Shown: positions 1-33,611 of the stretch, in pieces
How the letters are laid out: every line of letters starts with the position of its first letter
Position numbering within the stretch: position 1 is the stretch's first letter
IMG/VR virus record: IMGVR_UViG_3300045988_134784
Coordinates: 1-33,611 of that record
Source of the DNA: a virus
Length of the DNA stretch: 33,611 nt
Reading direction: 5' to 3' (one strand)
Translations under genes and position numbers: made by a program
Notes under the pieces: model-generated
What the model was told of the DNA's origin: nothing
Seen by the model: only the letters and a program-made list of their open reading frames with translations
Database searches by the model: none

Positions 1-55
1 ACTTGAAGGGAAATCATAAGCTCTTTGAAGAGGCCCCTCTCCAGGTTTAATGCTC
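1..55. repeat. 55-bp exact terminal direct repeat, copy 1 (identical to 33557-33611); contig closes on itself
   Basis: Positions 1-55 (acttgaagggaaatcataag...ccaggtttaatgctc) recur exactly at 33557-33611. The repeat lies inside one continuous minus-strand reading frame. Confidence 0.95.
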
Positions 56-669
56 CATCCTTTACCTCTTGCTCCACCAAGCCAAATATTGCAAGATGAG
101 CTAGAGTAAAGATTGGGAAACATATCCTTTAATGGCTTATATGTATAAAGCTCAGGGAATTCGTTATAATATGTAATTATAAAGTCCTGTAAACGAGTCT
201 TAAAGAAATCCGCCTTATCTCTATAATACTTCTTAATTTGATTTACTTGACTTGCTTCAGCAGCAATATCTTTCTCATCATCAGTTCTCATAACTCCAAA
301 ATTACCAAGCTTATAAGATATAGGAATTACTATCTCGCTAAGTACTTGATAAAGTAAATAAGGCTGAACATAATAGTCTAATAGCTCTTTATATCTGTAG
401 TTATCAGAATCATCAATAGAATCACTTGGAAGTGGCTCAGGAGGTTCTATTGGATGAACTGGAGTATGAGGATCAATCCAATTAATACATTTCTTTTGTA
501 ATGCTTCCAATAGCTTAGTACCAATAGTTGACTGAAGCTCTACATCTTGGGCACTTGTGATGGCTGCTTGTAAATATTTACCCGATATATTGTTATCTAA
601 TGTAGAATTTGACTTTATATAGTCTTCTGAAATAAGCAGTACATTTCTATAGTTAAGTTGTTCCATCAT
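1..669 (-). CDS. hypothetical virion-module protein, 5' part of a gene that crosses the contig junction (229 aa in total; continues 33556 -> 33536)
   Basis: ATG at 667-669 and the frame is open down to position 1. After the wrap it ends at TAA 33536-33538. No in-frame TGA and no family recognised. Product begins MMEQLNYRNVLLISEDYIKS... and ends ...GPLQRAYDFPSSNNKKSK. Confidence 0.6.
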   Translation of the reverse strand, partial: MMEQLNYRNVLLISEDYIKSNSTLDNNISGKYLQAAITSAQDVELQSTIGTKLLEALQKKCINWIDPHTPVHPIEPPEPLPSDSIDDSDNYRYKELLDYYVQPYLLYQVLSEIVIPISYKLGNFGVMRTDDEKDIAAEASQVNQIKKYYRDKADFFKTRLQDFIITYYNEFPELYTYKPLKDMFPNLYSSSSCNIWLGGARGKGWSIKPGEGPLQRAYDFPSS

Positions 670-1261
670 AAATAAATTTATTGTTTTTATAAGGTCTATT
701 TTCTTTTAAAGCTAAATATAATCCAGAACGTTCTCCATTAACTGATTTAACAGCTTCTTTCATTGAATTATATCTTGCAATAAAATTCCCATTCATATCA
801 AATCTTAATATAGGCTTAACTCTAATAATTCGTCCTTTGGAAGCATTTCCAATTTTAATAAGTGTTTCCAAAGTATAGATTCCTTTCTTTCCTTTATTCC
901 AGGGTGTTTTACCTTTTTTAGAATTTGACATTTTTGCTCTACTCTCATTAGAAAAAGAATACCCGTATGTACCTTCTCCTCCTGATGTTATATTGTAACC
1001 ATTTTCAGGAGTATTTGTTTTATATTTATGTATCAATATCCTTTCTAATGTCTTAGCACAAGCTTCTGGTAAATTATCTTTAATTATGATATGTTCAAAT
1101 CCATCTCAGCTATATTTTTGTATCGCTTTATAAAAGTAAGCTTGAGTAGAGTATCCATATCCATTTTTTCACCTAGCTTGCACACTTTGTCCAGTAATGC
1201 CAAAATATAGCTTATTGTTATACTTATTTATATGGCAATAAACAGTATAATTATTCAACAT
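653..1261 (-). CDS. free-standing GIY-YIG homing endonuclease #1 (202 aa, 2 sense TGA)
   Basis: ATG 1259-1261, TAA 653-655. N-terminus YTVYCHINKYNNKLYFGITGQSVQAR[TGA]KNGYGY...KAIQKYS[TGA]DGFEH...NGYNITSGGEG is a GIY-YIG core. TGAs at 1169-1171 and 1106-1108 fall on the conserved RW and KYGW Trp positions. The C-terminus carries NUMOD-like KKGKTPWNKGKKG and a DNA-binding tail. The track shows only the 653-1036 fragment. Confidence 0.9.
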
Positions 1262-2318
1262 TTTGTTTGCTATCTTCTTGTCCATTTGGAGTTAAGCTAA
1301 AAGGAGTTATAGTTATTGAACCTTTCATTCCAAATATCTTATCAAATGTATCTACTATTTCGACCTGAATTGGTCTAACTACTGTACGATTATAAAGTTT
1401 AAAAGCTTCATTAAATTCTTGTTCGTTGAATCCACTTGAGTAGTTAAGGCCAAAAAGTACACTATTAGCTCTAAATGCGCAGAATATTTGCTCCCTTGTT
1501 CTTTCAGATAAAGCACTATATTTCTCATCAAAATCATCAGAGTCTAAACGCTCAATAGTAGTCTTATTTGTCTCATCATCATTATATGAAATAAGAACTC
1601 TACCAGCATTTTGAAATCCTGAGAATTTCTCATTAATATTCATCTCAATCTCTTCTTTAACTTCGTCTGTAGGCTGTCCATTATTAAAGTTAATGATAAT
1701 ATTACCCATAAATCCGTTATGAAGAGAATTTAGATGGAACTCATTAATATTCTTCTCAGTTTCGCAAGATAGGATAGCTGCACCATAAACAGGGACTGGA
1801 TATACTTTTCTTGTTATATAGCCCTTATTATAAACAACACTTGTAGGATTATCATCTGAATAATTAAATTTTGGATATTTGATAGCTTTAATAGACCAAG
1901 CAGACCAATCATCGGCATAATAGAATACTTCATTCTTTTCATCAGAACGAATCTTCATAAAGTCAAGATGATAGATCTCTGAAACTCTACCTAACATATC
2001 TCTAATTATTTGTAAAGCATAACCTCCAAATATCATCTTATCAATAGTGATTTTTCTCATTATATCAACTATTGTTTCACCTTTCTTATTTACAGTTATT
2101 TCAAATCCTGGTGCATTACATACAACATCATTCCCAACAATAAAGTCAGCAGTCCCATTAATGATAGATTGAAGAGTAGCTACATTTAAGTATAAATCCC
2201 ATAGATATAATGGATAGCGATTATCTTCTCCTCACATTATCATATCAGAACCTCTTTTCCTTGTTTCCGTTGGAAGAACGATGTTAGATTGAATAAAAGG
2301 ATCTAGGGCTGACATCAT
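1251..2318 (-). CDS. portal protein (355 aa, 1 sense TGA)
   Basis: The track ORF 1251-2060 extends upstream in frame through TGA 2232-2234 to ATG 2316-2318 (MMSALDPFIQSN...MIM[W]GEDNRYPLYLWDL...). The FSGFQNAGRVLISY...REQIFCAFRA pattern is typical of HK97-type portal proteins. TAA 1251-1253. Confidence 0.8.
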
Positions 2319-2322
2319 TATT

Positions 2323-2970
2323 TTACTTTTGTGCCCATTCTCATTTGTAGCCTTTACATTGTTTATTTTTTCCATAAAGTACTCTGTTAATATTTTTATA
2401 ACCACTTTTTTGTGCTTCTTTACAAGAATCTCATCTTTTAATAAAATTGCCGTCTAAATCTAATTGATTTACTGGTTTGCTTCACTTTTTACGTAGATTT
2501 TCTTTCTCCTCTTCAGTTCTATGTCTACCATACATACCATTCTTCTCTCCAGATCTAGATTCACTCATTTTCTTCCGAGTATCCTCACTACATTTTTGCA
2601 CTCCTTTTTTATCCTTATTTCAGGGATCTTTCCCAATTGTACCTCCGCCTCCTAGAGTTGAATTATATCCATTTTTAAATGTATCATATAAAGCTATATA
2701 TTTAATTTCAGATGCATCTAACTGTTTCTTTAACAACTCTTTTGAAGAACAGGAAAATATTTTAAGTATTTTATAATCTCAATTATCTATACCATATAAT
2801 CTGATTGCTTTATGAAAGTGATCATTATAACTTCTTGAATTTGAATTAAAACTATCAGCACAATGTTGTTTCCATCTTATATCAAATGACCTACAAGTTT
2901 GTCCAATATACATTTTTCCTGTTACCTTAGAGCGGACCAAATATATTTCTCCAGTTTTATTTTCGCTCAT
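2323..2970 (-). CDS. free-standing GIY-YIG homing endonuclease #2 (215 aa, 5 sense TGA)
   Basis: ATG 2968-2970 (MSENKTGEIYLVRSKVTGKMYIGQT...FDIRWKQH...KAIRLYGIDN). It continues through TGAs at 2779, 2620, 2482, 2431 and 2341 to TAA 2323-2325. The tail reads ...NGYNSTLGGGG...GKDP[W]NKDKKG...MYGRHRTEEEKENL...QLDLDGNFIKR[W]DSCKEAQ...CKGYK[W]EWAQK. The plus-strand track ORF 2477-2776 is its antisense shadow. Confidence 0.9.
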
Positions 2971-3502: not shown

Positions 3503-4474
3503 TTATGCTGACGCTAAAGTTCAGTTTTTAGAAGCAGCTAATGATTTCTGTTCCTCAGTAAGAGCATTATAAACAGAAGAATTAAATGTAATGGTCTGAG
3601 CTGTTTCCCCAGTTAAATCAATTACAGACTCCAATACATTATTAACAGAGGATTCAGTTAAACCAGATAAATTTGTTAAATTAAAGGACTTATTTGTCAC
3701 AACCCCACCAAAATCAGTCAAATTTGGCATATAATAACTAGATCCGAATGTGTATCCAAATGCAGTACCCTCTAAAGCTGTATTATTAGCTATAGTTATT
3801 TTACCTAATGATTTTAAAGATGCACAATTCATAAACATCCTATTTGTTTGTCCACTACATTGAGGTGCATATATATCAGGTATTGTTTCTAATAATTCAC
3901 AATTCTCAAATATGCCTGAAAGAGAAGTTGCTATTGAAAAATCCATAGTAGGTAATATTTTTAACCTTCTGCATCCATAGAAAGTTTGAACAAACTGTAC
4001 AAGTTTTAAAGTGGCATTTATCTCAACTAAATGTTGACAATTATAAAATAATGAAGAACCATTAGAACTAGTACTATTTAATAAGGTTATTTTAGAAATT
4101 TGATTACTAGAAGAGTAAGAATGAAATAAATCATTCATAAGTTTATTCTGACAATCAAATGTAAAAGTATCTCCTGCACCTCATTCACAACCATAGAAAA
4201 AATAATTATAATTTGATTTGTTCATTATAAAATAATTTTCTAGTTTGTCTTCTCCGCCATCTCTAAATCTATGCATATTAGAAAAACTTAATGATATTGG
4301 AATAATACTTAAATCTATTTTTCCGCCACCTCCAGAAATCTGTCCTATCTTATCTGCATAACTTCTAAAGGTATCGGAATCTGATACAGCAACACCTTTA
4401 GCTACAATAGCATCTTTAATGGCACTCTTAGTACCTTCAAGATACGTTAATTTATCAGAAATTGTATTTGCCAT
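3503..4474 (-). CDS. tail fibre / receptor-binding protein with BspA/DUF285-type leucine-rich repeats, paralogue 1 (323 aa, 2 sense TGA)
   Basis: ATG 4472-4474. Track ORFs 4181-4474 and 3521-4138 share one frame and are joined by TGA 4181-4183. The apparent end TGA 3521-3523 is followed by 5 more codons to TAA 3503-3505 (...AASKN[W]TLASA). Repeats of the form F.nC..L..I (FYNCQHLVEI, FYGCRRLKIL, FENCELLETI, FMNCASLKSL). Confidence 0.7.
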
Positions 4475-5400: not shown

Positions 5401-6318
5401 TTAATTAGAATATGATATTGTTCATCCTTTAGAAACTATCTGGGCTTTTTGATCTTCAGTTAAAGAGTCAAAGATTACTTTATTAAAAACAATAGTAGGA
5501 TTCTTAGATGCGTCTGAATATAGTCCTTCTATTATATTATTTATAGATTGAACAGTAAGTGCAGGTAATCCTCCTAAATGCAATGTATATGTACTCATAG
5601 TGACTCCCTTCCCAATATTTGTAAAACCTCCAATATCTGTAAGTAGGGTGAAATCTTTAGATTCTTGATCTCTCTCATCATCAGTTCTGAATAAATCAGA
5701 AAAATTACTCCAGTTACTTGCATCATATTGCGGAACAGATTGAAGCCTATAACAGTACCTAAACATTTGATAAACAGTAACTTTTTTAGTTGAAGAAAAA
5801 GTTATCTGAGGTGCTGTTTTTAATTGTTCTGAATATCTAAATAATCCAGTACAATCTACAGCATTAGATAGATCTAATGGATCTATTTCTGTAGCTCCAA
5901 TTCCAGATAAGGCACCATACATACTCTTTTTACCAATAAAAATATCAGGTAATATATATGTTAAACTACGACATCCAGCAAATAAATAATACAAATCAGT
6001 ATCTGTATTTTCAGTAATATATTTTTGAGCATCTATAGATGTAGTTAACTGATACCGTAATGATGAATATGCTCTAAATATAGAAGTTTTTGGGTTAGAT
6101 GAAGTAGGATTTATATATCAACTAATAACATCTGGATTATTACATTCTGTAATTATTGAATTTACACTTCCTAAATATTGTCTTGCAACTGCTTTACGAA
6201 AAGTATCATCTATAAATGGAATTGGAGGACAAGGCCAGACTTTGGTACTGCCAACATAAATAGCAGTACCTTGTCTGTCACCTACATAAAATGTTTTTAA
6301 ATCATCTCTAATATTCAT
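5401..6318 (-). CDS. tail fibre / receptor-binding protein with BspA/DUF285-type leucine-rich repeats, paralogue 2 (305 aa, 2 sense TGA)
   Basis: Track ORFs 6118-6318 and 5422-5994 share one frame and are joined through TGA 6118-6120. The apparent end TGA 5422-5424 is followed by 6 codons to TAA 5401-5403 (...IVSKG[W]TISYSN). Motifs FAGCRSLTYI, FRYSEQLKTA and FRYCYRLQSV. The C-terminal 40 aa are alignable with the 3503-4474 product. Confidence 0.7.
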
Positions 6319-9016: not shown

Positions 9017-9541
9017 TTAAGCACCTACAACACTTTGAATAGCTTCAGCACTCAACTCATAAGGATATGATTCAGAGTCAGTAGCTAAAGTCAGCGTATA
9101 AGCGTTCTGATCACCTTTTGCAGTACCAGTAACACCCGTACCAGCGGAAGCGCTTACATAATCATCTTTTCCTAAGAACCAATATTTGCCATTAGAATCT
9201 TCTACAACAACTACAAGTTGTCCAATAGAAAGAGCAGCAATCTCGATTCTTTTCTTAGTCTCCATCTTTGTAAATACAAGAGCAAGCTCATTACTTACAT
9301 AGTTGGTTCCTGCAGTTTCGTCAACGTTCAATGTTGAGGTTAGAGAACCAGTACCTTTGCGGAATTGGTAATTATACCATTTAGCATCTGCTTCAAGAGT
9401 AATAGCTGAGATTTGATTAGTCTCATCATCTACAGTTACACTCTTAACATTATCGTACTGAGTAATCCATACCTGTTTGATACCACCAAGCGAAGATTCG
9501 CAATCCAGGGTAATACCAGCGATAGTTATTAAACAAGCCAT
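9017..9541 (-). CDS. abundant virion structural protein (possible major tail/tube or head-associated protein; 174 aa)
   Basis: Intact ORF with no TGA, visibly higher G+C than its surroundings, immediately downstream of the capsid gene and followed by a terminator. The functional assignment is tentative. Confidence 0.5.
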   Translation of the reverse strand: MACLITIAGITLDCESSLGGIKQVWITQYDNVKSVTVDDETNQISAITLEADAKWYNYQFRKGTGSLTSTLNVDETAGTNYVSNELALVFTKMETKKRIEIAALSIGQLVVVVEDSNGKYWFLGKDDYVSASAGTGVTGTAKGDQNAYTLTLATDSESYPYELSAEAIQSVVGA

Positions 9542-9579: not shown

Positions 9580-10482
9580 TTAGGCTTTGGCACCAAGAAC
9601 TACCTCATCAGGGAATGCAACCTGTACGCCAGCGTTAAATTCAATAGCTAATCTAAATTCGCGGAAATCTTGTGAATACCACAATTCAAACTTCTCTTCA
9701 TCGTTCATCATATCGCAACCATAGAAGAAGTTCTTATCTAACTGACCAGCAACAATCTTATCAGTTCCATTAAGACCATTAACAGCGATTACTTTAACCT
9801 GCGAACCAGGAAGCATAATCTCACCGTTAAGATTCTCACCACTATAATGGTAGTAGTTCTTAGCAACTAACTCCTGGATAAATTTACGGAAAGTATCACT
9901 ACCAACTAAGATAGAAGCACCATCCAGAACCTTCTCAGGAATAGCGTTATAAACAGTCATAATGTCATCGTAAGCAGAAGTACCAGTAATCGCTACATCA
10001 ACAGTACCAGCAGCATCTTTTAAGATCTTTAACAGACCATCAAAATACTTCAGGTTATTTATTTCAGAAGCAGTATCACCCTGCCAAATAGCAGTCTCAA
10101 TAGCAGCCTTAACATTCTCAACTACTGCATTTACGAAATCCTCTTCAAAAGGAAGCGTCTTCTGACCAGCAGCTACTCGTACTTGATACTGAGTCCAGTA
10201 TTTAAGCATCTCTTTATCACAATATGCCATATTGATCTTAATATTACCAGTAGCCAGAATTCTCTGAGAAAGAGTCTGAGTTCCAGCTTCATTCCAACCA
10301 CAAGCTAGGCCATCGCCAAACTGAATAGCAGTTGATAACAGGTTAAGAGCAGCACTAGTTTTGATGTCAGTTTGAAGATTGAACAACGAAGCACTCTTAG
10401 CCTTTAATACAGCCTCTTTTATCAATGGAAGCCTGCGCTGTTCTACGTAACTAGTTAAACTCGTCATTACGGGGTTTGCCAT
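9580..10482 (-). CDS. major capsid protein (300 aa)
   Basis: Intact ORF, ATG 10480-10482, TAA 9580-9582. Size, position after protease and scaffold, and sequence character (…GWNEAGTQTLSQR…AIWQGD…FFYGCDMMNDEEKFELWYSQDFREFRL…) fit an HK97-fold capsid protein. All 4 Trp are TGG. Confidence 0.8.
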   Translation of the reverse strand: MANPVMTSLTSYVEQRRLPLIKEAVLKAKSASLFNLQTDIKTSAALNLLSTAIQFGDGLACGWNEAGTQTLSQRILATGNIKINMAYCDKEMLKYWTQYQVRVAAGQKTLPFEEDFVNAVVENVKAAIETAIWQGDTASEINNLKYFDGLLKILKDAAGTVDVAITGTSAYDDIMTVYNAIPEKVLDGASILVGSDTFRKFIQELVAKNYYHYSGENLNGEIMLPGSQVKVIAVNGLNGTDKIVAGQLDKNFFYGCDMMNDEEKFELWYSQDFREFRLAIEFNAGVQVAFPDEVVLGAKA

Positions 10483-10496: not shown

Positions 10497-11135
10497 TTAA
10501 TTGTTATACTTAAATATTTTACCTTTATGCTGTTTATATTTTCCGTTTAATACTCTAAGAATAGAGCTTTTACAGTATCCATCTAAAACAGCATTTTTAA
10601 TTGAAGGATAAGTTTTAATTATATTTCCTTCTAAATCTAGCATAATGATTGATTTAGTACCTTTATTTATATGAGATTCAGACATCCTTTTTCTTGTCTC
10701 TGAAGTAAACTCTCTATTTATAGCTATATTTTTAAGTCTTTCTGTAGTTTCAGCATTATATACTCCCGTTTTGTGTTTATTTCAGGGATTACGACCTTTG
10801 CAAGATTCTGATATTTTAATAGCTATTTCTGGAGTCATTCCTCCATAACCTCCTGGTTTAAGATTTAAACATCTCTTATCGGTGTTATAACAATCGCCTA
10901 TAATATCAGCTTCTCTTAAAGCATTATCTTTTGAAGAATCATTAAATTCAATTATAACTTTTCTGTAAGTAACATCTTTAATCTTGCCATATTTACTATA
11001 GTAATTAGTAAGAATAGTGCCACTTCCTGCATAGCTATTATTAAATGGATCTTCATCAGTACTATGCTTGCCTATATAGTAAGTGTTTTCCCATCCAGGC
11101 ATTAAAGGCTGAATTTCATAAATATAATGGTACAT
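10497..11135 (-). CDS. free-standing GIY-YIG homing endonuclease #3 (212 aa, 1 sense TGA)
   Basis: Track ORFs 10782-11135 and 10497-10685 are one frame joined by TGA 10782-10784 (...CKGRNP[W]NKHKTG...), matching TPWNKGKKG (TGG) in endonuclease #1. The N-terminus YIYEIQP...YYIGKHS...NLKPGGYGG is a GIY-YIG core. The start overlaps the scaffold stop as TAATG. Confidence 0.85.
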
Positions 11136-11746
11136 TACTCAAACATTCCTTGGATATTTTTAAGCTTTTTATCAATAACAGGATTACCAGTCATTATTGA
11201 AGCTTTGCCTTCTATCTGTTCCTCAGCTGAAAATGCAGCACTCATTTTGCTCATCTTTTCAACCGTCTTTTCTGTAGCTTCAGATTTACCCTCTAATTCA
11301 GCTACTTTCTTAACAAGCTTATCAACAATGTCATAAAGCTCATTAATTTCGCGATGAATTGCATCAATTGCATCAGTTACAGTTTCTTTGTCACCATCAG
11401 TAGCTACTTCAGGATCAACTGGCTCTTCAGCAGTTTCTATCTTGCGTTTTCCACAAGCAGCATCAACTTCTGCTTTAGCTGCTTCTTCTGGATCAACCTC
11501 AGCTTTAGGATCAGTTACAGACTCTACTTTACCGTCTTTAACAACAATTGTCTTTCCATCCTCAGTTACATACTCACCATCCTCAGCAGGTTTGTATTCT
11601 CCGTTCTCATCCTGAACATATACATCCATACCAGCGCGTAAGTCTTCATCTGAATCCCAAGTAAGTACACCACTTGATGTCTTTAGATCCGTAAAATTAG
11701 ACAGCATTCTCGCTAACTCCAATTTAATTTTAGTGAATTTACTCAT
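11135..11746 (-). CDS. putative scaffolding protein (203 aa, acidic, coiled-coil)
   Basis: Intact ORF between the protease-like and capsid genes (homing endonucleases interposed). It is highly acidic with E/K-rich helical segments. Confidence 0.5.
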   Translation of the reverse strand: MSKFTKIKLELARMLSNFTDLKTSSGVLTWDSDEDLRAGMDVYVQDENGEYKPAEDGEYVTEDGKTIVVKDGKVESVTDPKAEVDPEEAAKAEVDAACGKRKIETAEEPVDPEVATDGDKETVTDAIDAIHREINELYDIVDKLVKKVAELEGKSEATEKTVEKMSKMSAAFSAEEQIEGKASIMTGNPVIDKKLKNIQGMFE

Positions 11747-12351: not shown

Positions 12352-12945
12352 TTAATGTTTAACTCTTTTTATCTTCTTAATCATATTAAGGATCTCTTTT
12401 ATTTCGTCATATTCATCAGACTTTCTCTCTAAAGTAAATAAACCTTCAATTGAGAACCCTTTAAACTTACCAGCTTTAATTGCATCTCAAATAACTTGAT
12501 TATCTACTTTATAAGTGGCAAATAAAGAACCATCAGGAACATCCTGGAATTCAACTGGAGATATTCCTCTATTAATATCCTTTACATAGATTTCTTGTAG
12601 AGTAATTCCATTTAAATCAGAATCTTCTAAATGTTCAATATTTACATCTGTAGTTCTCTTATCATACAGCATCTTCTCTGCCATTTTACGAAGAGTTTCC
12701 TTATCATACTGTATGTAGTATTCTCCGAGTTTCTCATCTCGTCTGAAAATTGGAGTATCACTTAACATTAAGCAAGATGTTACTAAATGCTTATCTTCAT
12801 CCATCGAGAACTTCTGAGAATTACTAAAAGCAACCCAGTTAACTTGTGTAGCTGGTTTACTTGTTAAAGCAACATATTCTATTCCATCACAATCATCAGT
12901 AATCACTGCCTGAAATAATGGAAGATCATTATAAGTAATTTCCAT
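12352..12945 (-). CDS. XkdF-like putative prohead serine protease (197 aa, 1 sense TGA)
   Basis: Track ORF 12487-12945 continues through TGA 12487-12489 (...VDNQVI[W]DAIKAGKFKGFSIEGLF...) to TAA 12352-12354. The W..(I/V)K.G...GFSIEG pattern is as I recall it for the XkdF family. Confidence 0.6.
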
Positions 12946-13023
12946 TTTTATTAATATATAGCACTTTATAAATTTGTAATATTGTTACAATCTTTTATTT
13001 TTATATATTTATATACTATCAAA

Positions 13024-13072
13024 TGTCAAGTTTTTTACTCAAATTTGTATCTAAGATAAATAAATTTTGACA
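13024..13072 (+). repeat. conserved intergenic element, copy B (49 bp)
   Basis: tgtcaagttttttactcaaatttgtatctaagataaataaattttgaca. It has the same 18-nt head and the same ctaaga...taaa...ttgaca tail as copies A and C. Confidence 0.75.
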
Positions 13073-13119
13073 TAGCACTACTATATAAGCACTGATAATC
13101 AGCAACTTACATAGTAGTG

Positions 13120-13152
13120 TGTCATAAATTTTACTCACTTTAGAAACTTGCA
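13120..13152 (+). repeat. degenerate partial copy D of the intergenic element, overlapping the 3' end of the tape-measure-like gene
   Basis: tgtcataaattttactcactttagaaacttgca shares tgtca and the 13-nt core ttttactcacttt with copy C. Confidence 0.5.
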
Positions 13153-22012: not shown

Positions 22013-22052
22013 TTTTGTTAAAATATATTATTTTATATATTAGCAGCTAATG

Positions 22053-22276: not shown

Positions 22277-22918
22277 CTATTCAGATAATTCAGCTTCATT
22301 TTTGAGTAAAAGGATTAATCGTCTCGTCTGTATTAAGCTCTTCAGAAGTTTCCTCCTTTCCAGTTTGTCCCTGGTTTTCCTTAGTCTCTTCTTCATCTCC
22401 CTTTCCGAAGAGTGTAGGGTACTCAGCGTTGATACTTGCAATAAGTTTACAAAAAAAAACATTATGTCTGAAAATATATCTATTGTTAGATGAGTATTTA
22501 AGAATTCTGCCTCATCAATAGGGTCATAATCTTCTCCATACTTCTTTCCATTAGGTAGTAAGAAACAAGCTGCTAGATTAGGCATAAAATCATCATACTG
22601 CTTATAAAAATTCTGAAAGTCAATATATTGACTGGCCGTCATCTTATTAACATTAAAAAAGACTTTATATTCTTTATTACCAATATTATAAGTAGTTTCT
22701 GGGGTTTTTGGCTTATATGGAGTCTCTATAAATTTAAGATTATTTATAAACTCTTGTAGCTTGTTTACTTCCATATTAGTTATATCTTCTATAGGTATAT
22801 CACTAAGTACAGATACCATAGCTAAATTCATATCTAATTCATTTTCCCAGTCTTTTCGTATTATCTCAAACAGTCTTTTATAATGAGATAAATCCATTTC
22901 ATTCCAATTCTTTATCAT
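22277..22918 (-). CDS. hypothetical protein (213 aa)
   Basis: Intact ORF. The start overlaps the terL stop as TAATG (22916-22920), and it ends at TAG 22277-22279. Basic helical C-terminus; no family recognised. Confidence 0.6.
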   Translation of the reverse strand: MIKNWNEMDLSHYKRLFEIIRKDWENELDMNLAMVSVLSDIPIEDITNMEVNKLQEFINNLKFIETPYKPKTPETTYNIGNKEYKVFFNVNKMTASQYIDFQNFYKQYDDFMPNLAACFLLPNGKKYGEDYDPIDEAEFLNTHLTIDIFSDIMFFFVNLLQVSTLSTLHSSEREMKKRLRKTRDKLERRKLLKSLIQTRRLILLLKNEAELSE

Positions 22919-24201
22919 TATTTAATTGCAATATTATAAGTTCCTTTATTTGTATTTAAAGCATCATAAGCTAACATTAAAGATATACAAGTATCATCAT
23001 TAAATCCAGATGGAGCATTATAACTAACATTTCCAGTCTTTGGATTATAACTGGCTTCATATAGTCTTAATTCATTTAATAGTTTATCATCCTTTAAAAT
23101 ACCAATCTTTTCGTTTTCTAATGCAGCTTGTAGCTTATTTACAATAGCTGCCTTAGACTTATTAGTAGTTAAGAATCGTATAATCCTGATTTTCGGATTC
23201 TTCCGAACTAACATATCATAGAAGACACTACCTATTGAGTTTTGTTCGACTTGAACTATCTTTATAAATCCCTGATACTCAGTGAATATATTTGTCAGTA
23301 AATCAACTTGTTCTGTTGGAGTTTTGTCGTTAAAATACTTTATAAAGACCATCTGCCCATTTTCATTTAAAGCTGTAATACAGGTATAGTCTTTACCAGA
23401 ACCAGTAGCCCAGTCAACTCCAATATAAAGATTATGATATTCAGGTTTTTTATCAATTATGCAGTTAGATATATTATTAAAGAGACAACCATCATCATCT
23501 GCAAACTCCCCAAGATATTCAGTTCTAAATTTATTTTTAGAGGTTGTAAGGCGATACATTTCAAGTTTATCCTCACTCAATAGCATAGAGGTATCTTCTA
23601 ATGCTCAATCAAAGGATTGATAATATTTGCTAAAATTGCCATCAAAGCCTTTTTTAAAACATTCATAAAAGAATCCTTCTCTAAACCTTGGAGTACTAAT
23701 TATAAGTATCGGAGCATTCCATACATCAGTGGTAGGCTTAATAATTTCAAATACTTCATCTTTAAGATAAGCTGCCTCATCAAGTACTAATAATCCACTG
23801 ACTGAGAATCCTCGTAATGAATCCATTTGTTCTCCAGATCTAAATAGTATAGAACTGCCATTATTAAACTCTAATTCTAATAAGGTTTCATTCTTTCTCC
23901 TTAATATATCAGAGTCTATAACAGCTTGTACAAGTTCTTTAAATACCTTTCTGGATTGTCCAAGAGTTGGTTCAACTATACAATTAACACTCCCAGGATA
24001 ATTTATAGCGAATCTCAATAATTCATTTTCTGCTAAGAATGATTTGCCTACCTGTCTCTTTGCTTTAATTGTAAAGATTCTACCAGACCTATATGAGTCA
24101 TTCATAGCAGTATGTACCTTTAATTGATAGATAAATGGGCTATATCCTTTATATATTTTTGTCATTGTTAATTGGATCTCCAAATTTAAACTGGACTTCA
24201 T
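22918..24201 (-). CDS. terL: terminase large subunit (427 aa from ATG 24201, or 415 aa from ATG 24165; 1 sense TGA)
   Basis: Track ORFs 23605-24201 and 22918-23586 are one frame joined by TGA 23605-23607 (...YYQSFD[W]ALEDTSMLLSEDK...). Walker A AKRQVGKS, Walker B LLVLDEAAY, and a C-terminal RNaseH-like nuclease half (IGVDWATGSGKDYT...NDDTCISL). Confidence 0.9.
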
Positions 24202-27167: not shown

Positions 27168-27407
27168 TTATCTTACATTATGAATTTTTAAGGTTACATC
27201 ACAATACTGTTCATATAATTCAGATACTTCTGAACTTCCAGGATTATACCACATTACAGAGTCTAATTTATGCTGAAGTTCTGCCTGTTCTAATCTAAGC
27301 TCAAATGTTTTAGTTTGGTAGTCTCCATAAGCATTATATACTCTAATACCAGCTATAATAAAGCTAAGTACTAATAATCCAGCTAATATTTTATTTATCT
27401 TTTTCAT
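27168..27407 (-). CDS. small membrane-anchored protein (79 aa)
   Basis: MKKINKILAGLLVLSFIIAGI (N-terminal TM/signal anchor) followed by a helical ectodomain. The track start at 27449 overlaps the upstream gene and is unlikely to be used. Confidence 0.55.
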   Translation of the reverse strand: MKKINKILAGLLVLSFIIAGIRVYNAYGDYQTKTFELRLEQAELQHKLDSVMWYNPGSSEVSELYEQYCDVTLKIHNVR

Positions 27408-27418
27408 AATTAAATATA

Positions 27419-27598
27419 TTAGAAAGAAATACCTAAACCAAAAAACCAAGAGGATTTCTTTACCTTTTCATTGGTTTCAATCTCCTTTAATGCCTCATTA
27501 CATAATTCTTGAGCTTTCTCAATAGAACCATCTTCAGTAATCTTACCATCTAATATATCAAGAAAATATTCAAGTGCTTCAATTTGTTTAGTTTTCAT
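27419..27598 (-). CDS. hypothetical small protein (59 aa), first gene of the minus-strand unit
   Basis: ATG 27596-27598, TAA 27419-27421. Product MKTKQIEALEYFLDILDGKITEDGSIEKAQELCNEALKEIETNEKVKKSSWFFGLGISF. Below the track size cut-off. Confidence 0.45.
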   Translation of the reverse strand: MKTKQIEALEYFLDILDGKITEDGSIEKAQELCNEALKEIETNEKVKKSSWFFGLGISF

Positions 27599-27644: not shown

Positions 27645-27676
27645 CAAATATACAACAAAAAATTCCAATTTCCAAA
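27645..27676 (-). promoter_or_regulatory. Bacteroidota-type promoter candidate (TTTG-N20-TATATTTG) for the minus-strand unit
   Basis: On the minus strand, TTTG is at 27676-27673 and TATATTTG at 27652-27645, with 20 nt between them. It lies about 45 nt upstream of ATG 27598. Confidence 0.5.
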
Positions 27677-27752
27677 TTTTTTAGGTATTATTTTTATTAT
27701 TTTCAAAAAAATATTACTATTTGTATTTTTATTATATATTAATAAAAACAAT

Positions 27753-28479: not shown

Positions 28480-30201
28480 ATGAAAACATATTTAAACAAT
28501 TTGATTAATGAGTTGCCAACTAACTGCTTATTTGATAAAGGAAAAGTTGGATGTGGAGGAACTTCAATGGCAATTGAATGTGATAAGCCTTATGTTATTT
28601 GTGTTCCATTTACAAGCTTAGTTGAAAATAAAATTCAACAATATCCAAATGAAAGACGTAAAGAGAAGATATTTGGAGTTTATGCTGGAGTTACTATTAA
28701 AGAGATTAAAGATTATGTAGATAGTGTTAAATGTCCTAAAATTATTGTTACATATAATTCACTACCAAAAGTTATTTCTGCTGTTAATACTAAAGAATAT
28801 AGTTTATTAGTAGATGAATATCATATACTATTTAATCAGTATAGCTTTAGAAAGGATGCGATTAAACCTGTTTTAGAGAATTATACATTATTTAAGGATT
28901 TTACATTTATGACTGCTACACCTCTTGAAGAAGAGTTTGTATTAGATGAATTAAAAGATTTAGAATTAGTAAAACAAGAATGGGATGATGTAATTGAAAC
29001 TAAAGTACAAGCTGTTAAATGTAAGAATGTTGAAGCTTCAACTATTAAATTAATTAATGCTGTTCTTAATAATCAGGTTGAAGGTAATGTTTATATATTT
29101 GTAAATTCTGTAGACTTTATAAAGAATCTTATTCAGAAAGCTAAACTTACAGAAGATAATACAAGAGTTATATATTCTAAAAACAATAAAACTAAATTAT
29201 CAATTCATAATTCTACAGTATTAGATGAACCTAAGAAAATAAATTTATTAACTTCAACAGTATTTGAAGGTTCTGATATTTATGATGAAAATGGAAGAAT
29301 TGTAGTAGTAAGTGATGCTCAAAAAGCTCAAACTCTTCTTGATATCTCTACTTCTATTCAGCAGATTGCAGGAAGAATTAGAAATAGTAAATATTTAAAC
29401 TGGATAACACATCTTTACTCAGCAACAAGATATGCAGATATTAGTTATGAAGACTTTAAAAAGAAGAATATTCAGAATATTGAGGAAACTAAGATTGCTG
29501 TAGATGCTTATAATTCAATGCCTGAAGTTGCAAGAAAGAAGCTTAAGGAATTTACATCTGATGCTTATATTCAAGTAAATGATAACTTTACTTTTACTTT
29601 TGATCCTAATATGGCCAAAGTGGACATATTTAACTTTAAAGTGACAAGAGGCTTATATTCTATTAGAACTAATCTTAATAAGGAATATATAAAGAATGGG
29701 TTTAAAAAAGTAGTAGAATGTGAAGATAATTCTATTAAGATTGATTTTGAATCTGATAATAAACCATTTAAAGATTTAATTAAAGAAGTAAGAGCTGAGT
29801 GGGAAAATAAGTTTAAATTAAACACTCCTATATTAAATGATGCTATTATTAAATATCCTTGGTTACCTGAAGCTATTAGTAAATTAGGATTTGAAAAGAT
29901 GGCAAGTTTAAAATATTGTATTTCAGATATTAAAGATGCCTTATTAAAAAAATCTAATAAAAGTGCAGATAACAAAGCCGCTAAGAAGTTGAATCAATCA
30001 GTTACTCTTGGAATGTGGTATTCTAATTCTGATATTAAAAAGTTTATTAAAGAAGCCTATGAAATTAGTGATATTACTATTACACCAAAAGCAACAGAAA
30101 TTAATAAATATTATGAAGTTAAAAAATGCCAGAAAAGAGTAAATGGTAAACAAACTGAAGGTTATGTAATTATTAATAAAAAATTTGTATTTAATAAATA
30201 A
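28480..30201 (+). CDS. superfamily-2 (DEAD/DEAH-like) helicase, probable replication protein (573 aa)
   Basis: Intact ORF with no TGA. Motif I GKVGCGGTS, motif II LLVDEYH, motif III MTATP, motif VI QQIAGRIRN. The C-terminal ~230 aa are unassigned. Confidence 0.8.
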   Translation: MKTYLNNLINELPTNCLFDKGKVGCGGTSMAIECDKPYVICVPFTSLVENKIQQYPNERRKEKIFGVYAGVTIKEIKDYVDSVKCPKIIVTYNSLPKVISAVNTKEYSLLVDEYHILFNQYSFRKDAIKPVLENYTLFKDFTFMTATPLEEEFVLDELKDLELVKQEWDDVIETKVQAVKCKNVEASTIKLINAVLNNQVEGNVYIFVNSVDFIKNLIQKAKLTEDNTRVIYSKNNKTKLSIHNSTVLDEPKKINLLTSTVFEGSDIYDENGRIVVVSDAQKAQTLLDISTSIQQIAGRIRNSKYLNWITHLYSATRYADISYEDFKKKNIQNIEETKIAVDAYNSMPEVARKKLKEFTSDAYIQVNDNFTFTFDPNMAKVDIFNFKVTRGLYSIRTNLNKEYIKNGFKKVVECEDNSIKIDFESDNKPFKDLIKEVRAEWENKFKLNTPILNDAIIKYPWLPEAISKLGFEKMASLKYCISDIKDALLKKSNKSADNKAAKKLNQSVTLGMWYSNSDIKKFIKEAYEISDITITPKATEINKYYEVKKCQKRVNGKQTEGYVIINKKFVFNK

Positions 30202-30215
30202 AAATATTATATTTG
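30184..30215 (+). promoter_or_regulatory. Bacteroidota-type promoter candidate (TTTG-N20-TATATTTG) overlapping the helicase stop
   Basis: TTTG at 30184-30187 and TATATTTG at 30208-30215. The ATG of the next ORF is 5 nt downstream (30220), implying a leaderless or near-leaderless mRNA. Confidence 0.45.
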
Positions 30216-30707: not shown

Positions 30708-31277
30708 TTAAACATATCTTCACTTGAATCCTTTAGCTGTATTTGCTAATCCACCACATACTCTACTAATAGCTCCTCTATCAGTTCCTACAGATTTGGC
30801 TGCTTCTGTGCAACTTTCATACTCTTGAATAAAATTACCATCTAAATCATACTGAGCTACTTTACGACATCTTTGTTTGTTATGAGCATCTACTTTATCT
30901 CTTCAAGATTCTGGGCAATTATGTTTCTTTCCCTTATTAGAATTAGACAGTTTCTTCTTTCATTCAGAATTAAATTTGACTCCGTAATTGCCTCCTTCTC
31001 CTCCAGGTTTCAAATTTAAACACATAGGATCAGTGTCCCATTTATCTCCAATTAGTTTGTATTCTAATTTAGATAATTCATCTGCATTAGTGCAAGTTGC
31101 CAAAATAATCTTTTGGTATGCATTAGGGAATCTTTTGTAATAATTAGTAATAATCCTTCCTGATCCTTTATATGGATCTTTATTTATGTCTTTACCTCTA
31201 TAAATCCTTTTCCCAATATAATACTTGCCTCTTAATGTACCTGCAGTTAAAATTATTTTATAACAATAGTAAAACAT
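30708..31277 (-). CDS. free-standing GIY-YIG homing endonuclease #5 (189 aa, 3 sense TGA)
   Basis: Track ORF 30960-31277 (YCYKIILTAGTLRGKYYIGKR...NLKPGGEGG) continues through TGAs at 30960, 30903 and 30720 (...NSE[W]KKKLSNSNKGKKHNCPES[W]RDKV...AQYDLDGNFIQEYESCTEAAKSVG...AKGFK[W]RYV) to TAA 30708-30710. The start overlaps the endolysin stop as TAATG. Confidence 0.9.
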
Positions 31278-31729
31278 TATATAATAGTAAATTTCTGTCG
31301 TCTTTGCATCCCGTCTTTATTCTTTAATCCCAAGTGTATTCAACTTGCTATACCATTCTTAGGCTTTTCATATATCAACTGGTCTCAATTTAATTCTTCA
31401 ATAGCTTCAGCAATCCAACTTTGGAATACTTTCATATTACCATTAATTGGAGATATATCTGCTGCATACCCTGTTAAATGAGCAGAAGTTGAAGATCCTC
31501 CCACTGCTTTATTAAGCTCCTTATTCCTAAAACCAGAGGAAATCCTGATGCCTGCATTGCCAAGCTGATTGTCATCACAATACTTTGCCCATCTATCTCT
31601 TATTGGGTCTAAAAGCTTCTCGACCAACTCTATTAGGTGCTCTGTTATACTCTCATCTGGAGTGTTATTTATATGCTTAATTGAAGCAGTATCAGATCTT
31701 GTTAATTCTTCGAGTGTGAAATACTTCAT
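31277..31729 (-). CDS. peptidase M15 (D-Ala-D-Ala carboxypeptidase / L-Ala-D-Glu peptidase type) endolysin (150 aa, 2 sense TGA)
   Basis: RISSGFRNKELNKAVGGSSTSAHLTGYAADI is the SxHxxGxAxD zinc-site pattern. It continues through TGA 31385 and TGA 31340 (...NGIAS[W]IHLGLKN...) to TAA 31277-31279. Confidence 0.8.
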
Positions 31730-31887
31730 TATTTATATGAATTATGCAGTTTATAAAGATAAATAAAATAGCACACTGCTCCAAATAACGTTAAACTAAT
31801 AGTAATCCAAAAAGGAATTACTTTAATTAACAAAAATGCAATCATTAATAGTACAACTACTATTACATATTTTAACCAATATTTCAT
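31729..31887 (-). CDS. putative holin (52 aa, two TM helices); below track cut-off
   Basis: Product MKYWLKYVIVVVLLMIAFLLIKVIPFWITISLTLFGAVCYFIYLYKLHNSYK. Its stop overlaps the endolysin ATG as TAATG. Confidence 0.55.
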   Translation of the reverse strand: MKYWLKYVIVVVLLMIAFLLIKVIPFWITISLTLFGAVCYFIYLYKLHNSYK

Positions 31888-31888: not shown

Positions 31889-32545
31889 TTATATTTTATT
31901 TAAAATTATACTTATCTGTATTCCAGCTCTTCTTAGATGTACTCAAGTATCATAAGGCATAGGTGTATCACAGAATGATAAACCTAAAATGCCAATATCT
32001 TTATCCTCAGTCTTTAAATAAAATACTGCTATTTCATTCACTCTGTTGGATTTAAATGCATAATATAATCTTGGATCATCTGCTTCTAAACTATCTATAT
32101 TACCAAACCATCCATCATTCTTAGAAAACTCTATAATTGAAGTATAGTCAGATAACAGGAAATTTTTATAATGGCTACTTACAGATCGTATTCCTGGTTT
32201 AACTTCCTCGGCATTCATTACTCCATAAGTAAACGGAAGTCCTCCTAATCCAGTAGTTCCATTATGATATTCAATAACCCAAGCTCTATCAGCATTGGTA
32301 CTTTGAAGCAATTCTTTAAGCTTATATTTAATCTTTAAAGTTGCTTCATTTCTTGCAATAGTTTTAGAATTGTGAGTTTGTTCAATATAGGTTACAACCT
32401 TATTATAAACAATAGAGGGATTAAGTGTAATAACCATTACATAGGATATAAATATTAATCCAATCCCTGCTTTAAATATCTTTAGTAATCCATATTTATC
32501 AACCCATTCTAATACTTTACCAAACCAATTTAATTTATTTTCCAT
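31889..32545 (-). CDS. membrane-anchored hypothetical protein (218 aa, 1 sense TGA)
   Basis: Track ORF 31943-32545 plus a 17-codon extension through TGA 31943-31945 to TAA 31889-31891. One N-terminal TM helix (AGIGLIFISYVMVITL); the globular domain is unassigned. Confidence 0.6.
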
Positions 32546-33126
32546 TACATATATTTGAAAGTGTATCCATAAGTTTGTTTTTGTTTACCTTTTAAAACAG
32601 CACATATTAAACAGCTGCTAATATTTAATTCTCTTGAAGCTGCTCTTATACTTTTATAGGATTTAACAAAATTACCATTTAAATCATACTGAGAAATTGC
32701 TTTAGTTCTATTATTTTGATTTTTCTTACTAATAATAGATTTAGTTTCCTCAGAATGGTGTCTACCGTAAAATGGATTCTTATTTCCAATTCTTGTTTTG
32801 GCAAACTCAGAGATAATTTTCTTAGTTTCTTTAGAAATAACGGGATGATTATTAGAATCTGTTCTATTGTAGCCAAATCGTAAATCAGTTGTATTATAAT
32901 AACCAAATAGATATTTTTCAAGATATTTCATTTCTGATTCACTATCTACATAATATACAGTATGTTGAATATTATCTCAACCATATTTCTTAATTGGTTT
33001 ATATACAAACTGATCTTTATAACCATCGCCATTTTTTCATCTATAATTAATCTCTTGAGTTGTTAATCCTACGTACCTTTTTCCATTAGGAAATATATGT
33101 ACATAAACTACATACTGTCTTCACAT
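32545..33126 (-). CDS. free-standing GIY-YIG homing endonuclease #6 (193 aa, 3 sense TGA)
   Basis: ATG 33124-33126. M[W]RQYVVYVHIFPNGKRYVGLTTQEINYR[W]KNGDGYKDQFVYKPIKKYG[W]DNIQHTV... with TGAs at 33121, 33037 and 32977, then the track ORF 32545-32931 (NKNPFYGRHHSEETK...QYDLNGNFVKSY...YGYTFKYM). Confidence 0.9.
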
Positions 33127-33533
33127 ACTCCAATAATATTGTCAACTTGGAAATCAGCTCTAACAAACACTCCACAGGTAATATCTTTGAACTTTTGATA
33201 GAATGGAGTAAAAATTAAAGGATAAGAAATATCAACTTCTGGATATTGGTTATTAAATCGGTTAATTATATTAGTTAATGCTAATATTCCAGCTGATTGC
33301 TCTTCAAGCTGATTATTATCAGTCTCATCCCATCTTGATACGAAGTATAGGTTTAAAGAGTAAGTAATAGTATCTTCATCTACACTAAAAGTATTAGGTG
33401 TTATATAGAACACATTATACTCAATAGTTGGTAAGCTATTTAACTCATAAATATCTTTACTTCCTACAAAATTGATGTTTGGCTCTTCTAATGCACAAGC
33501 TTTTAAATTGCTAATTATCTCATAGTAGGTCAT
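33108..33533 (-). CDS. hypothetical virion-module protein (141 aa)
   Basis: Intact ORF, ATG 33531-33533, TAG 33108-33110. No family recognised. Confidence 0.55.
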   Translation of the reverse strand: MTYYEIISNLKACALEEPNINFVGSKDIYELNSLPTIEYNVFYITPNTFSVDEDTITYSLNLYFVSRWDETDNNQLEEQSAGILALTNIINRFNNQYPEVDISYPLIFTPFYQKFKDITCGVFVRADFQVDNIIGVCEDSM

Positions 33534-33535
33534 AA

Positions 33536-33611
33536 TTACTTACTCTTTTTATTGTTACTTGAAGGGAAATCATAAGCTCTTTGAAGAGGCCCCTCTCCAG
33601 GTTTAATGCTC
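33536..33611 (-). CDS. 3' end of the junction-spanning gene listed at 1-669 (33557-33611 duplicates 1-55)
   Basis: The same frame as 1-669 continues ...YDFPSSNNKKSK to TAA 33536-33538, 2 nt before the ATG of the next gene. Confidence 0.6.
   Translation of the reverse strand, partial: SIKPGEGPLQRAYDFPSSNNKKSK
33557..33611. repeat. 55-bp exact terminal direct repeat, copy 2
   Basis: Identical to 1-55. Confidence 0.95.

Follow-up and report, generated by a model that had tools for sequence, protein, structure and literature searches.

Genome and gene content of the phage

The window analysed here, the whole 33,611-bp stretch of DNA held as IMG/VR record IMGVR_UViG_3300045988_134784, comes from a human gut metagenome and carries a tailed phage with a guanine plus cytosine (GC) content of 30%. 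Our subject is the codon TGA, which lies in frame within many genes of this phage and which a first-pass annotation, made from the letters alone, had read as tryptophan. The window is a complete circular phage genome with a unique part of 33,556 bp, because its ends are identical (an exact 55-bp terminal direct repeat, 1-55 and 33557-33611), a DUF6712 gene spans the junction (651..1 and then from 33556 onward, to a TAA stop) and a related contig (L023) connects window position 8 to 33592. The repeat itself is probably an assembler k-mer overlap. An identical contig of 33,611 bp is public (NODE_591_length_33611 in ENA assembly ERZ1311704), and a human-gut sample from the Qin 2012 cohort yielded the same contig again; coverage is 77x, and two assemblies hold the identical contig. 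The public gene table for the ENA contig already gives products of 725, 999 and 922 amino acids (aa), that is, with TGA read through, and nr already has an entry for the capsid protein, 'MAG TPA: Major capsid protein [Caudoviricetes sp.]'.

With TAA and TAG as the only stops the window holds 45 genes, nearly all on the minus strand (strands are given below as − or +), and 93% of the sequence is covered by open reading frames (ORFs). Searches against Pfam and PHROGs assigned the large terminase, portal, XkdF-type protease, scaffold-like, capsid and tape-measure-like proteins, a tail-tip fibre, two BspA-type leucine-rich repeat (LRR) proteins, an M15 peptidase, an early helicase-like protein of superfamily 2 (SF2) and a helix-turn-helix (HTH)/sigma-like gene. 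The 40 larger proteins covered by these searches yielded no integrase, five ORFs of 45-54 aa lying outside the scan. The capsid protein was matched by 3,554 proteins at E<=1e-10, and these matches show the phage to be widespread in human gut samples. Since the contigs of the 120 best capsid hits listed (identity at least 88%) are all 33.6 kb or shorter, the phage was not seen integrated, and it does not appear to integrate. Among 50,697 GenBank phage records no match was obtained, either by megablast of 20.6 kb or by tblastn of the capsid protein. For comparison, 112 related loci (L numbers below) were gathered from IMG/VR, GTDB genomes and public assemblies, with TGA translated as X for the searches; most relatives originate from IMG metagenome 3300045988, which was co-assembled from human faecal samples.

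In-frame TGA codons

Calling ORFs under translation table 4, in which TGA is sense, instead of table 11 raised the union coverage from 74% to 93% and the longest ORF from 573 to 999 aa, in agreement with the earlier description of a genome that table 11 fragments and table 4 keeps intact. Making TAG sense instead of TGA gave no comparable gain. The genes contain 10,738 in-frame codons, of which 52, in 26 of the 45 genes, are TGA; TAA and TAG are absent by construction. The other five frames of the same DNA each contain from 304 to 1,140 TAA and TAG codons, so frames that are open except for TGA cannot be due to chance. One of the TGA-bearing ORFs is doubtful: a reading frame of 45 aa at 13016..13153 (−), whose last codon before a TAG stop is TGA (13019), coincides in part with a long hairpin and is unlikely to be a gene. 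Once it is dropped, 51 TGAs in 25 genes remain, which is the number reached previously by hand. Gene ends are TAA in 41 cases and TAG in four (16342, 22277, 33108 and the doubtful ORF at 13016).

Several of the longest genes are in one piece only when TGA is read through. A tail/baseplate-like gene of 999 aa (16342..19341, −), closed by TAG, contains TGAs at 18460, 18313, 17761, 17410, 17068 and 16750; relatives have TGA or TGG at all six sites, and at 17410 five of seven standard-code relatives have TGG. Immediately beyond it lies a structural gene of 725 aa (19344..21521, −) with TGAs at 21123, 21069, 21018 and 19956, whose homologues in standard-code relatives end in TGA. The tape-measure-like gene (922 aa; 13140..15908, −) has TGAs at 14913, 14439 and 13359, and the large terminase (22918..24201, −; Pfam Terminase_6N and Terminase_6C) has one at 23605, where relatives have TGA 31 times and TGG three times. 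Every TGA that the first-pass annotation had placed in the 999-, 725- and 922-aa genes is in frame, as are all those that it had placed in the GIY-YIG, NUMOD, HNH and LRR genes.

Evidence that TGA encodes tryptophan

Sequence alignments identify TGA as a sense codon for Trp in this genome. We aligned the TGA positions with ten clearly standard-code relatives, defined as those whose ORFs are intact under table 11; at the 67 residues covered, Trp was the most frequent (26), followed by Tyr (14), Phe (3) and Gly (1). When the likelihood of each amino acid was evaluated against empirical per-amino-acid substitution profiles from the same alignments, Trp ranked first, with Tyr 45.5, Cys 118 and Gly 182 ln units behind; both the counts and the maximum-likelihood assignment favour Trp in these columns, as predicted. 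Over all relatives, TGA codons of the window align with TGA 1,091 times, TGG 454 times, Phe codons 136 times and Tyr codons 132 times, and never with TAA or TAG. TGG is seen in at least one relative at 36 of the 51 aligned TGA sites, and, conversely, TGG codons of the window align with TGA 677 times. Identity in the 25 aa before and after a TGA is the same on both sides, at 0.37 and 0.37 for standard-code relatives and at 0.62 and 0.61 for the clade.

The homing endonucleases provide a comparison with a protein of known structure. A GIY-YIG/NUMOD gene at 653..1285 (−; Pfam NUMOD3) has TGAs at 1169 and 1106, with both TGA and TGG present among relatives, and a second, at 32545..33126 (−), has TGAs at 33121, 33037 and 32977. 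A profile built from four GIY-YIG paralogues matches the catalytic domain of I-TevI (1MK0, E=2e-4) and places the R-TGA-K of 1169 and 33037 on the Trp of I-TevI EKRWKRH, as had been suggested. The profile was needed for this: a single GIY-YIG protein used as PDB query matched only the DNA-binding domain of I-TevI. The companion suggestion, that the TGAs in the motif KYGW(D/E)N(F/I) correspond to a Trp of the known family, holds in part; I-TevI has a different sequence there and offers no counterpart, so that TGA/TGG swaps among relatives are the sole basis for the assignment.

Such swaps recur among paralogues within the genome. The TPWNKG motif has TGG in the 653-1285 gene and TGA in two others, at 10782 in a GIY-YIG-like/NUMOD gene that lies between the scaffold-like and capsid genes (10497..11135, −; NP-W-NK) and at 2620 in a GIY-YIG/NUMOD3 gene (2323..2970, −; Pfam GIY-YIG and NUMOD3), which has further TGAs at 2779, 2482, 2431 and 2341. 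In a pair of HNH/NUMOD genes (−), LIKIW of the 25166-25714 copy (TGA 25412) corresponds to LIKR-TGA, at 26354, of the 26243-26734 copy. A NUMOD endonuclease at 30708..31277 (−; TGAs 30960, 30903 and 30720) ends in GFK-TGA-RY, and at this C-terminal column (30720) relatives have TGA eight times, TGG twice and TTT twice. Finally, the two BspA-type LRR paralogues, at 3503..4474 (−; TGAs 4181 and 3521; Pfam LRR_5) and 5401..6318 (−; TGAs 6118 and 5422), both continue to code beyond a TGA near their end: the tail SKN-W-TLASA of the former parallels SKG-W-TISYSN of the latter, and the standard-code relative L073 has TGG at the 3521 column. These swaps had all been seen in the first reading of the sequence, and the translations bear them out.

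Gene ends allow a check that does not assume what TGA means. In the recoded clade, 303 distinct homologous gene ends were compared, and the codon that follows them is TAA in 239 cases, TAG in 35 and TGA in none, whereas in standard-code relatives TGA ends four of the 11 homologous genes that finish on a stop codon. The claim that TGA never terminates in this genome therefore survives a non-circular check, and the reading of TGA as Trp is supported by tests that do not presuppose it (alignments, likelihood, I-TevI and gene ends).

Two other accounts of the TGAs deserve virtually no credence. One would have TGA encode glycine (table 25, with an Absconditabacteria or Gracilibacteria host), selenocysteine or cysteine; table-25 phages are present in human microbiomes, and the low GC content would suit, but Gly and Cys are effectively refuted by the 182 and 118 ln units by which they trail Trp, and TGA columns over all relatives contain Gly 14 times and Cys twice against 454 TGG. 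As for selenocysteine, there are 52 TGA sites, in phage structural genes, and no requirement of the kind of a selenocysteine insertion sequence (SECIS) is satisfied. The other account takes the TGAs for real stops, in a decaying or pseudogenised element or through an assembly or sequencing artefact, which would explain the fragmentation of the large genes under table 11. The comparative data refute it: the same TGA positions are kept in dozens of independently assembled relatives, the frames are never broken by TAA or TAG, conservation is equal before and after TGA, and the 77x coverage and the identical contig in two assemblies speak against artefact.

Three genetic codes within one phage family

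The gathered loci do not all use the same code. Table 4 is needed for the clade of the window, for L034/L071 and for L072; L073, L075-77, L079-80, L084-85 and L087-89 are intact under table 11; and L107 and L106 need TAG as a sense codon. In a tree of capsid proteins the table-4 members group together, with the standard-code L073 as their sister. TGA recoding is a property of one sub-lineage of a phage family that has codes 11, 4 and 15. The TAG-recoded relatives (L106, L107 and L086) have capsid identities of 46-51%, and one of them, L106, contains at 8781-8868 a good 88-nucleotide tRNA(CUA), which has a long variable arm and closely precedes the helicase-like gene. No bacterium is known that reads TAG as Gln, and the existence of TAG-recoded members therefore means that phages of this family do recode on their own. 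Genes of the low-GC standard-code relatives end almost only in TAA. This fits the route to recoding proposed by Borges et al. (10.1101/2021.08.26.457843), in which a state with few TGA stops is the precursor.

Loci L023, L050 and L090 belong to a single contig of 148.6 kb (IMGVR_UViG_3300045988_175865), which has a relative of the window phage at its end. In the adjacent 9 kb more proteins of the collagen-like and tail-fibre kinds are encoded, with as many as 10 in-frame TGAs. A host chromosome can be ruled out for this contig, since a flank of tail-fibre-like genes rich in in-frame TGA is phage DNA; it may be a chimera or concatemer produced by assembly, or else a larger recoded phage that shares a module.

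TGA is used in some genes and excluded from others

The first-pass annotation had described TGA as a sense codon across the whole genome. That it is a sense codon stands, but 'whole genome' is too strong, because a defined set of genes excludes it. TGA makes up 36% of the Trp codons of the window, compared with 64-88% for the A-ending codons of Lys, Glu, Gln, Leu (TTR) and Arg (AGR). We measured across the clade how often a TGG of the window is TGA in a relative, and compared this flip rate with that from AAG, GAG or CAG (K/E/Q) to the A-ending synonym. The sequences of the clade are related, so that the counts are not independent events, and the K/E/Q control shares that dependence.

In one group of genes the two rates are similar: 18% for TGG to TGA against 18% for K/E/Q in the tape-measure-like gene, 28% against 40% in the 999-aa gene, 16% against 22% in the 725-aa gene, 23% against 31% in the terminase gene and 44% against 31% in the gene at 31889-32545. 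Given these rates, TGA is effectively a neutral synonym of TGG in all five. More generally, TGG and TGA replace each other about as fast as the members of other synonymous A/G pairs do in the genes for tail, tape-measure, terminase and homing-endonuclease proteins and in lysis-associated genes. A Peptidase M15_3 endolysin gene (31277..31729, −; Pfam PF08291, E=2e-13) has TGAs at 31385 and 31340. The homing endonucleases have the highest TGA share of all (16 of 28 Trp codons), the gene at 11739-12341 lacking TGA in six relatives.

A second group suppresses TGA 20-30 fold. The major capsid gene (9580..10482, −; named from nr) has four TGG and no TGA; across the clade its TGG codons flip in 1 of 202 cases against 14% for K/E/Q, and TGA accounts for 1 of 150 Trp codons. 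Downstream of it, the gene of a 174-aa protein (9017..9541, −) gives 2 of 147 against 11%, with TGA at 1 of 90 Trp codons. The gene of the scaffold-like coiled-coil protein (11135..11746, −) gives 0 of 33 against 27%, with TGA at 0 of 23. The XkdF-type prohead protease (12352..12945, −; Pfam Peptidase_S78_2) has a single TGA, at 12487, where 12 of 13 standard-code relatives have TGG; its TGG codons flip in 0 of 53 cases against 31%, and TGA makes up 8 of 77 clade Trp codons. The portal gene (1251..2405, −; Pfam Phage_portal) likewise has one TGA (2232), with 2 of 155 flips against 25% and TGA at 17 of 148 clade Trp codons. Two genes from the early region complete the set: that of the SF2 helicase-like protein (28480..30201, +; 573 aa, five TGG and no TGA, with a weak Helicase_C_2 match), at 2 of 123 against 33% and TGA at 1 of 92 clade Trp codons, and that of a small early membrane protein (27168..27449, −), at 0 of 46 against 26% and 0 of 24. 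A holin-like gene of 52 codons with two predicted transmembrane segments (31729-31887), which adjoins the M15 endolysin gene, has no TGA in the window and none among 19 clade Trp codons.

This avoidance is not ordinary codon bias, because general A/G third-base usage (K, E, L, R) is the same in the TGA-excluding and TGA-tolerant gene sets; codon bias as its cause is ruled out on the same ground. Ascertainment bias is negligible except for the portal gene, since the patterns used for retrieval contained no Trp, apart from 15 loci that were retrieved through the portal pattern. The two TAG-recoded relatives L106 and L107 have no TAG in their capsid, 174-aa, scaffold and helicase-like genes; TAG is present in the tape-measure gene of both, in the portal gene of L106 and in the terminase gene of L107. 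The avoiding set mixes early genes (helicase-like and 27168-27449) with head genes (capsid, scaffold, protease) and the portal gene. These data suggest that reading the reassigned codon carries a cost, is inefficient or starts late; low-copy proteins would accept it, and the most abundant proteins and the first replication gene would not.

Search for a decoder

Recoded crAss-like phages usually carry a matching suppressor tRNA. In the window and in every recoded relative, however, ARAGORN found no tRNA, and it found no tRNA(UCA) in any of the 112 loci; Rfam at E<=1 likewise gave no tRNA in the window. Relaxed ARAGORN runs (thresholds lowered as far as ps60, intron mode, mitochondrial mode) returned only noise. 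Their one UCA candidate, at 27677-27746 in the early intergenic region, was rejected as such, having 7% GC and mismatched stems. The three longest intergenic regions, considered as sites of a hidden tRNA, fold as terminator hairpins or hold promoters and do not form cloverleaves, and nothing in the window resembles the tRNA(CUA) of L106. Pfam and PHROGs searches of the same 40 larger proteins, again with the five 45-54-aa ORFs outside the scan, revealed no release factor, no aminoacyl-tRNA synthetase (that for Trp, TrpRS, included), no deaminase, no tRNA-modifying enzyme and no other domain linked to translation. The clade thus encodes no recognisable tRNA, release factor or Trp-tRNA synthetase. 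Detectable suppressor tRNAs are present in only 35% of the TGA-recoded genomes of Borges et al. (10.1101/2021.08.26.457843) and in 15% of the table-4 phages of Cook et al. (PMC11210395), which makes such a tRNA a frequent rather than an obligatory trait, and the present phage falls in the majority class (65-85%) of table-4 phages without a detectable Sup-TCA tRNA.

Host signals

Initiation and transcription signals both point towards Bacteroidota. Shine-Dalgarno (SD) motifs are at background level, being found at five of 44 window genes, and they are at background in the whole family too. The promoter consensus TTTG-N17-21-TAnnTTTG (a Bacteroidetes-type promoter) is matched four times against 1.6 expected, and all four matches are intergenic, correctly oriented and located in the divergent early region: one at 27645..27676 (−) faces the leftward early operon, two at 28227-28257 and 28305-28336 (+) lie upstream of the helicase-like gene, and one at 30184..30215 (+) lies upstream of the gene at 30220-30381. 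SD-poor initiation and promoters of the TTTG/TAnnTTTG type are characteristic of Bacteroidota. No full promoter match was found upstream of the structural operons; this distribution, together with the sigma-r4-like gene at 25692-25958, hints at phage-directed late transcription.

Homologues point the same way. Proteins with 43-48% identity to the helicase-like protein occur in Bacteroidota DNA, some of them adjoining Arm-DNA-bind_5/Phage_int_SAM_5 integrases and BACON-domain proteins of Bacteroidota integrative elements. Another lies on the 132-kb contig L113 (ENA ERZ28598220 scaffold_71), in a TAG-recoded prophage that has a Phage_int_SAM_5 integrase and is integrated beside a tRNA-Thr(CGU); the prophage shares the early helicase-like protein with the window phage at 45% identity, the host genes on the contig are intact under table 11, and the glutamine synthetase among them clusters with that of Lentimicrobium sp. 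The M15 peptidoglycan peptidase and the adjacent holin-like gene imply a cell wall, which argues against Mollicutes, and a Mycoplasma-like host does not fit. Because SD sites are lacking, the promoters are of Bacteroidetes type, an M15 endolysin is present and homologues are borne by Bacteroidota, we consider it probable, at around two chances in three, that the recoding is phage-specific and takes place in a walled, standard-code member of the Bacteroidota. A scan of genome contigs with the capsid profile was also made; it yielded four small phage contigs binned into metagenome-assembled genomes, whose conflicting labels make them unusable for host assignment.

A proposed model for UGA decoding

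The explanation that we favour overall, with a probability of roughly 65%, is a phage-specific recoding of UGA to Trp in a standard-code Bacteroidota host, in which the decoder is not a phage tRNA and decoding is delayed or inefficient. Only UAA and UAG terminate, and UGA is translated as Trp; the recoding would be of the type described by Borges and Yutin, in a walled Bacteroidota host of standard code, and not an adaptation to a code-4 host. The likeliest decoder would be the host tRNA-Trp(CCA), reading UGA by C-A wobble, with RF2 outcompeted or disabled by some early phage product; alternatively, a suppressor may be supplied in trans by the host or by another element. If decoding of UGA is delayed or inefficient, the abundant head proteins and the first replication gene would keep TGG for that reason, and the low-copy tail, terminase and endonuclease proteins would tolerate one to six TGAs.

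A number of observations weigh against this explanation. Six TGAs in the single 999-aa gene need a high efficiency per codon, which fits plain near-cognate readthrough poorly. Within the window alone, neither the heterogeneity of TGA among genes nor a partition into early and late is significant (permutation p=0.11), and the signal of gene-specific use comes from a clade whose sequences are not independent. Nor are early genes simply devoid of TGA: the gene at 30220-30381 (+), directly behind a host-type promoter, has a TGA at 30283 that is kept in 13 of 13 relatives, and the probable early genes at 26721-27158 and 25692-25958 also carry TGA. The nucleotide after TGA shows a depletion of T in the window (p=0.03), but not in the pooled clade (p=0.20), so that the +4 context of the pooled clade gives no significant bias and no sign of a contest with RF2. 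Evidence on the host is indirect, with neither CRISPR nor prophage tying the phage to a bacterium; the four contigs mentioned above carry the labels Lachnospiraceae (two), Bacillales and Bacteroidaceae; and walled code-4 gut Eggerthellaceae with 31-40% GC have been described (10.64898/2025.12.01.691617). Regarding the 30220-30381 gene itself, which encodes 53 aa, its TGA at codon 22 is never TGG in the 13 relatives, in contrast to the free turnover elsewhere, and the stop or its readthrough could itself be functional.

The recent description of those Eggerthellaceae raises the chances of an alternative that we still judge unlikely, namely that the code is native to the host, which would use code 4 (lacking RF2 and having a tRNA-Trp(UCA)) and might be a Mycoplasmatales-like bacterium, one of these gut Eggerthellaceae or a member of some undescribed code-4 lineage. 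The phage itself would then need no mechanism, in keeping with a phage that lacks suppressor tRNA, release factor and TrpRS, with TGA in probable early as well as late genes and never as a terminator, with a GC content of 30% and with the absence of +4 bias in the pooled data; moreover, Cook et al. assign many table-4 phages to code-4 hosts (PMC11210395). Against a wall-less Mollicute stand the M15 peptidoglycan peptidase and the holin-like gene, and there is no similarity to GenBank phages of Mycoplasma or Spiroplasma. A host among Firmicutes or Actinomycetota, Eggerthellaceae included, would be expected to bring SD motifs, whereas the phage has none above background and has Bacteroidetes-type promoters. 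Nor does native use of code 4 sit well with a family that has standard-code and TAG-recoded members, with a TGA share of Trp codons well below the A-ending share of comparable pairs, with the 20-30 fold exclusion of TGA from head and helicase genes in which codon bias is not generally shifted, or with the exclusion of TAG from the same genes in TAG-recoded relatives. The clade is also widespread in the human gut, where, to our knowledge, code-4 bacteria are rare.

If recoding is phage-specific and the host has the standard code, the decoder might instead be a non-canonical suppressor RNA that is encoded by the phage and missed by ARAGORN and Rfam. According to a suggestion by Borges et al. (10.1101/2021.08.26.457843), many recoded phages have non-canonical suppressor tRNAs that escape detection, and the TAG-recoded L106 has its tRNA(CUA) next to the helicase-like gene. 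That tRNA is a normal one, however, with no similar sequence in the window; non-coding space there amounts to only about 2 kb, its three longest stretches being terminator hairpins and promoter regions, and neither the noisy 27677-27746 candidate nor the Rfam search offers such an RNA, which we therefore hold to be quite improbable. A further and bolder proposal, to which we give a minority chance, is that a widespread clade of human-gut Bacteroidota phages decodes UGA as Trp in a standard-code host without a tRNA, release factor or synthetase of its own through a novel factor, for example an early RF2-neutralising protein that lets host tRNA-Trp read UGA, and exploits incomplete or late decoding to set expression. 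Head proteins and the first replication gene would then be TGA-free by design, low-copy tail, terminase and selfish endonuclease genes would be throttled by one to six UGAs, and the same partition of genes in the TAG-recoded cousins would make this a general design rule of recoded phages.

Relation to other recoded phages

Stop-codon recoding in phages, table-25 phages included, was reportedly described by Ivanova et al. in 2014, and recoding of TGA and TAG in crAss-like gut phages is said to have been documented by Yutin et al. Reassignment of TGA to Trp in gut phages is already established, so that the bare finding adds little, and modern gene callers already handle stop-codon recoding in phages. 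Cook et al. (2024) count 46 table-4 viral operational taxonomic units, or 0.08% of the Unified Human Gut Virome (PMC11210395).

The nearest parallel is with the TGA-to-Trp gut phages of the Borges type (for example Agate and Jade, and Garnet and Amethyst at about 34 kb). They too have low GC, TGA in about 60% of genes, standard-code relatives almost without TGA stops, a mixture of codes 11, 4 and 15 and a replication gene free of the recoded codon. The differences are that no suppressor tRNA is found anywhere in the clade of the window and that enrichment of the recoded codon does not extend to every structural gene, the tail tolerating it and the head module and portal keeping it out. Garnet, compared by description only, is alike in its size of 33.6 kb, its Bacteroidota signals and its mixed codes; Garnet phages are temperate, whereas the window phage has no integrase among the 40 proteins scanned. 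The crAss-like phages (Crassvirales; PMC11210395) likewise have a probable Bacteroidota host, genes without SD motifs and gene blocks that avoid the recoded codon; they measure about 100 kb against about 33 kb here, and the window lacks RNA polymerase and DNA polymerase genes of the crAss type.

The phage is neither of the Mycoplasma type nor a table-25 phage. Phages of Mycoplasma and Spiroplasma likewise read TGA as Trp, need no suppressor tRNA, use TAA and TAG as their only stops and are AT-rich. The window phage differs in having a peptidoglycan peptidase and a holin-like gene, Bacteroidetes-type promoters and genes that exclude TGA, and in using TGA for only a minority of its Trp codons; there is no sequence similarity. 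Table-25 phages of Absconditabacteria and Gracilibacteria (Liu et al. 2023, PMC10746230) share the sense use of TGA and an origin in the human microbiome, but in them TGA encodes Gly and occurs in about 90% of genes, compared with Trp and 58% of genes here.

The value of the phage lies in its being a small, complete and abundant member of the majority class of TGA-recoded phages without a detectable suppressor tRNA. Its sister lineages include standard-code and TAG-recoded phages, and it offers a compact comparative system for how and why UGA is decoded. The mechanism in tRNA-less table-4 phages is an acknowledged open question, to which gene-by-gene selection on TGA adds a concrete, testable clue; that head and helicase genes reject TGA while it is neutral in tail, terminase and endonuclease genes differs from the published statement of an enrichment of recoded stops in structural genes. 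In practice, annotation with table 11 destroys the tail, terminase and endolysin genes of this family.

Genome organisation and mobile genes

The order of genes on the minus strand between 1251 and 24201 is unusual. The terminase, a neck-like gene, the two very large structural proteins and the tape-measure-like gene come first, followed by protease, scaffold and capsid and then by the tail fibre and LRR proteins; the portal gene is distant from the terminase and close to the lysis genes. A near-perfect 20-bp hairpin within 12946-13139 follows the tape-measure-like gene (fold z=-4.8), and a GC-rich stem with a U-run at about 22040-22070 (−) forms an intrinsic terminator after the gene at 22277-22918. 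These two elements appear to split the minus-strand array, with a tail unit upstream and a head unit downstream.

About 13% of the genome is given over to eight homing endonucleases, of which six are GIY-YIG/NUMOD and two are HNH/NUMOD proteins (653-1285, 2323-2970, 10497-11135, 11739-12341, 25166-25714, 26243-26734, 30708-31277 and 32545-33126), and several of them are wedged among head-morphogenesis genes. The two HNH/NUMOD genes flank the HTH/sigma-r4-like gene (25692-25958, −; TGA 25854) together with a gene of 102 aa.

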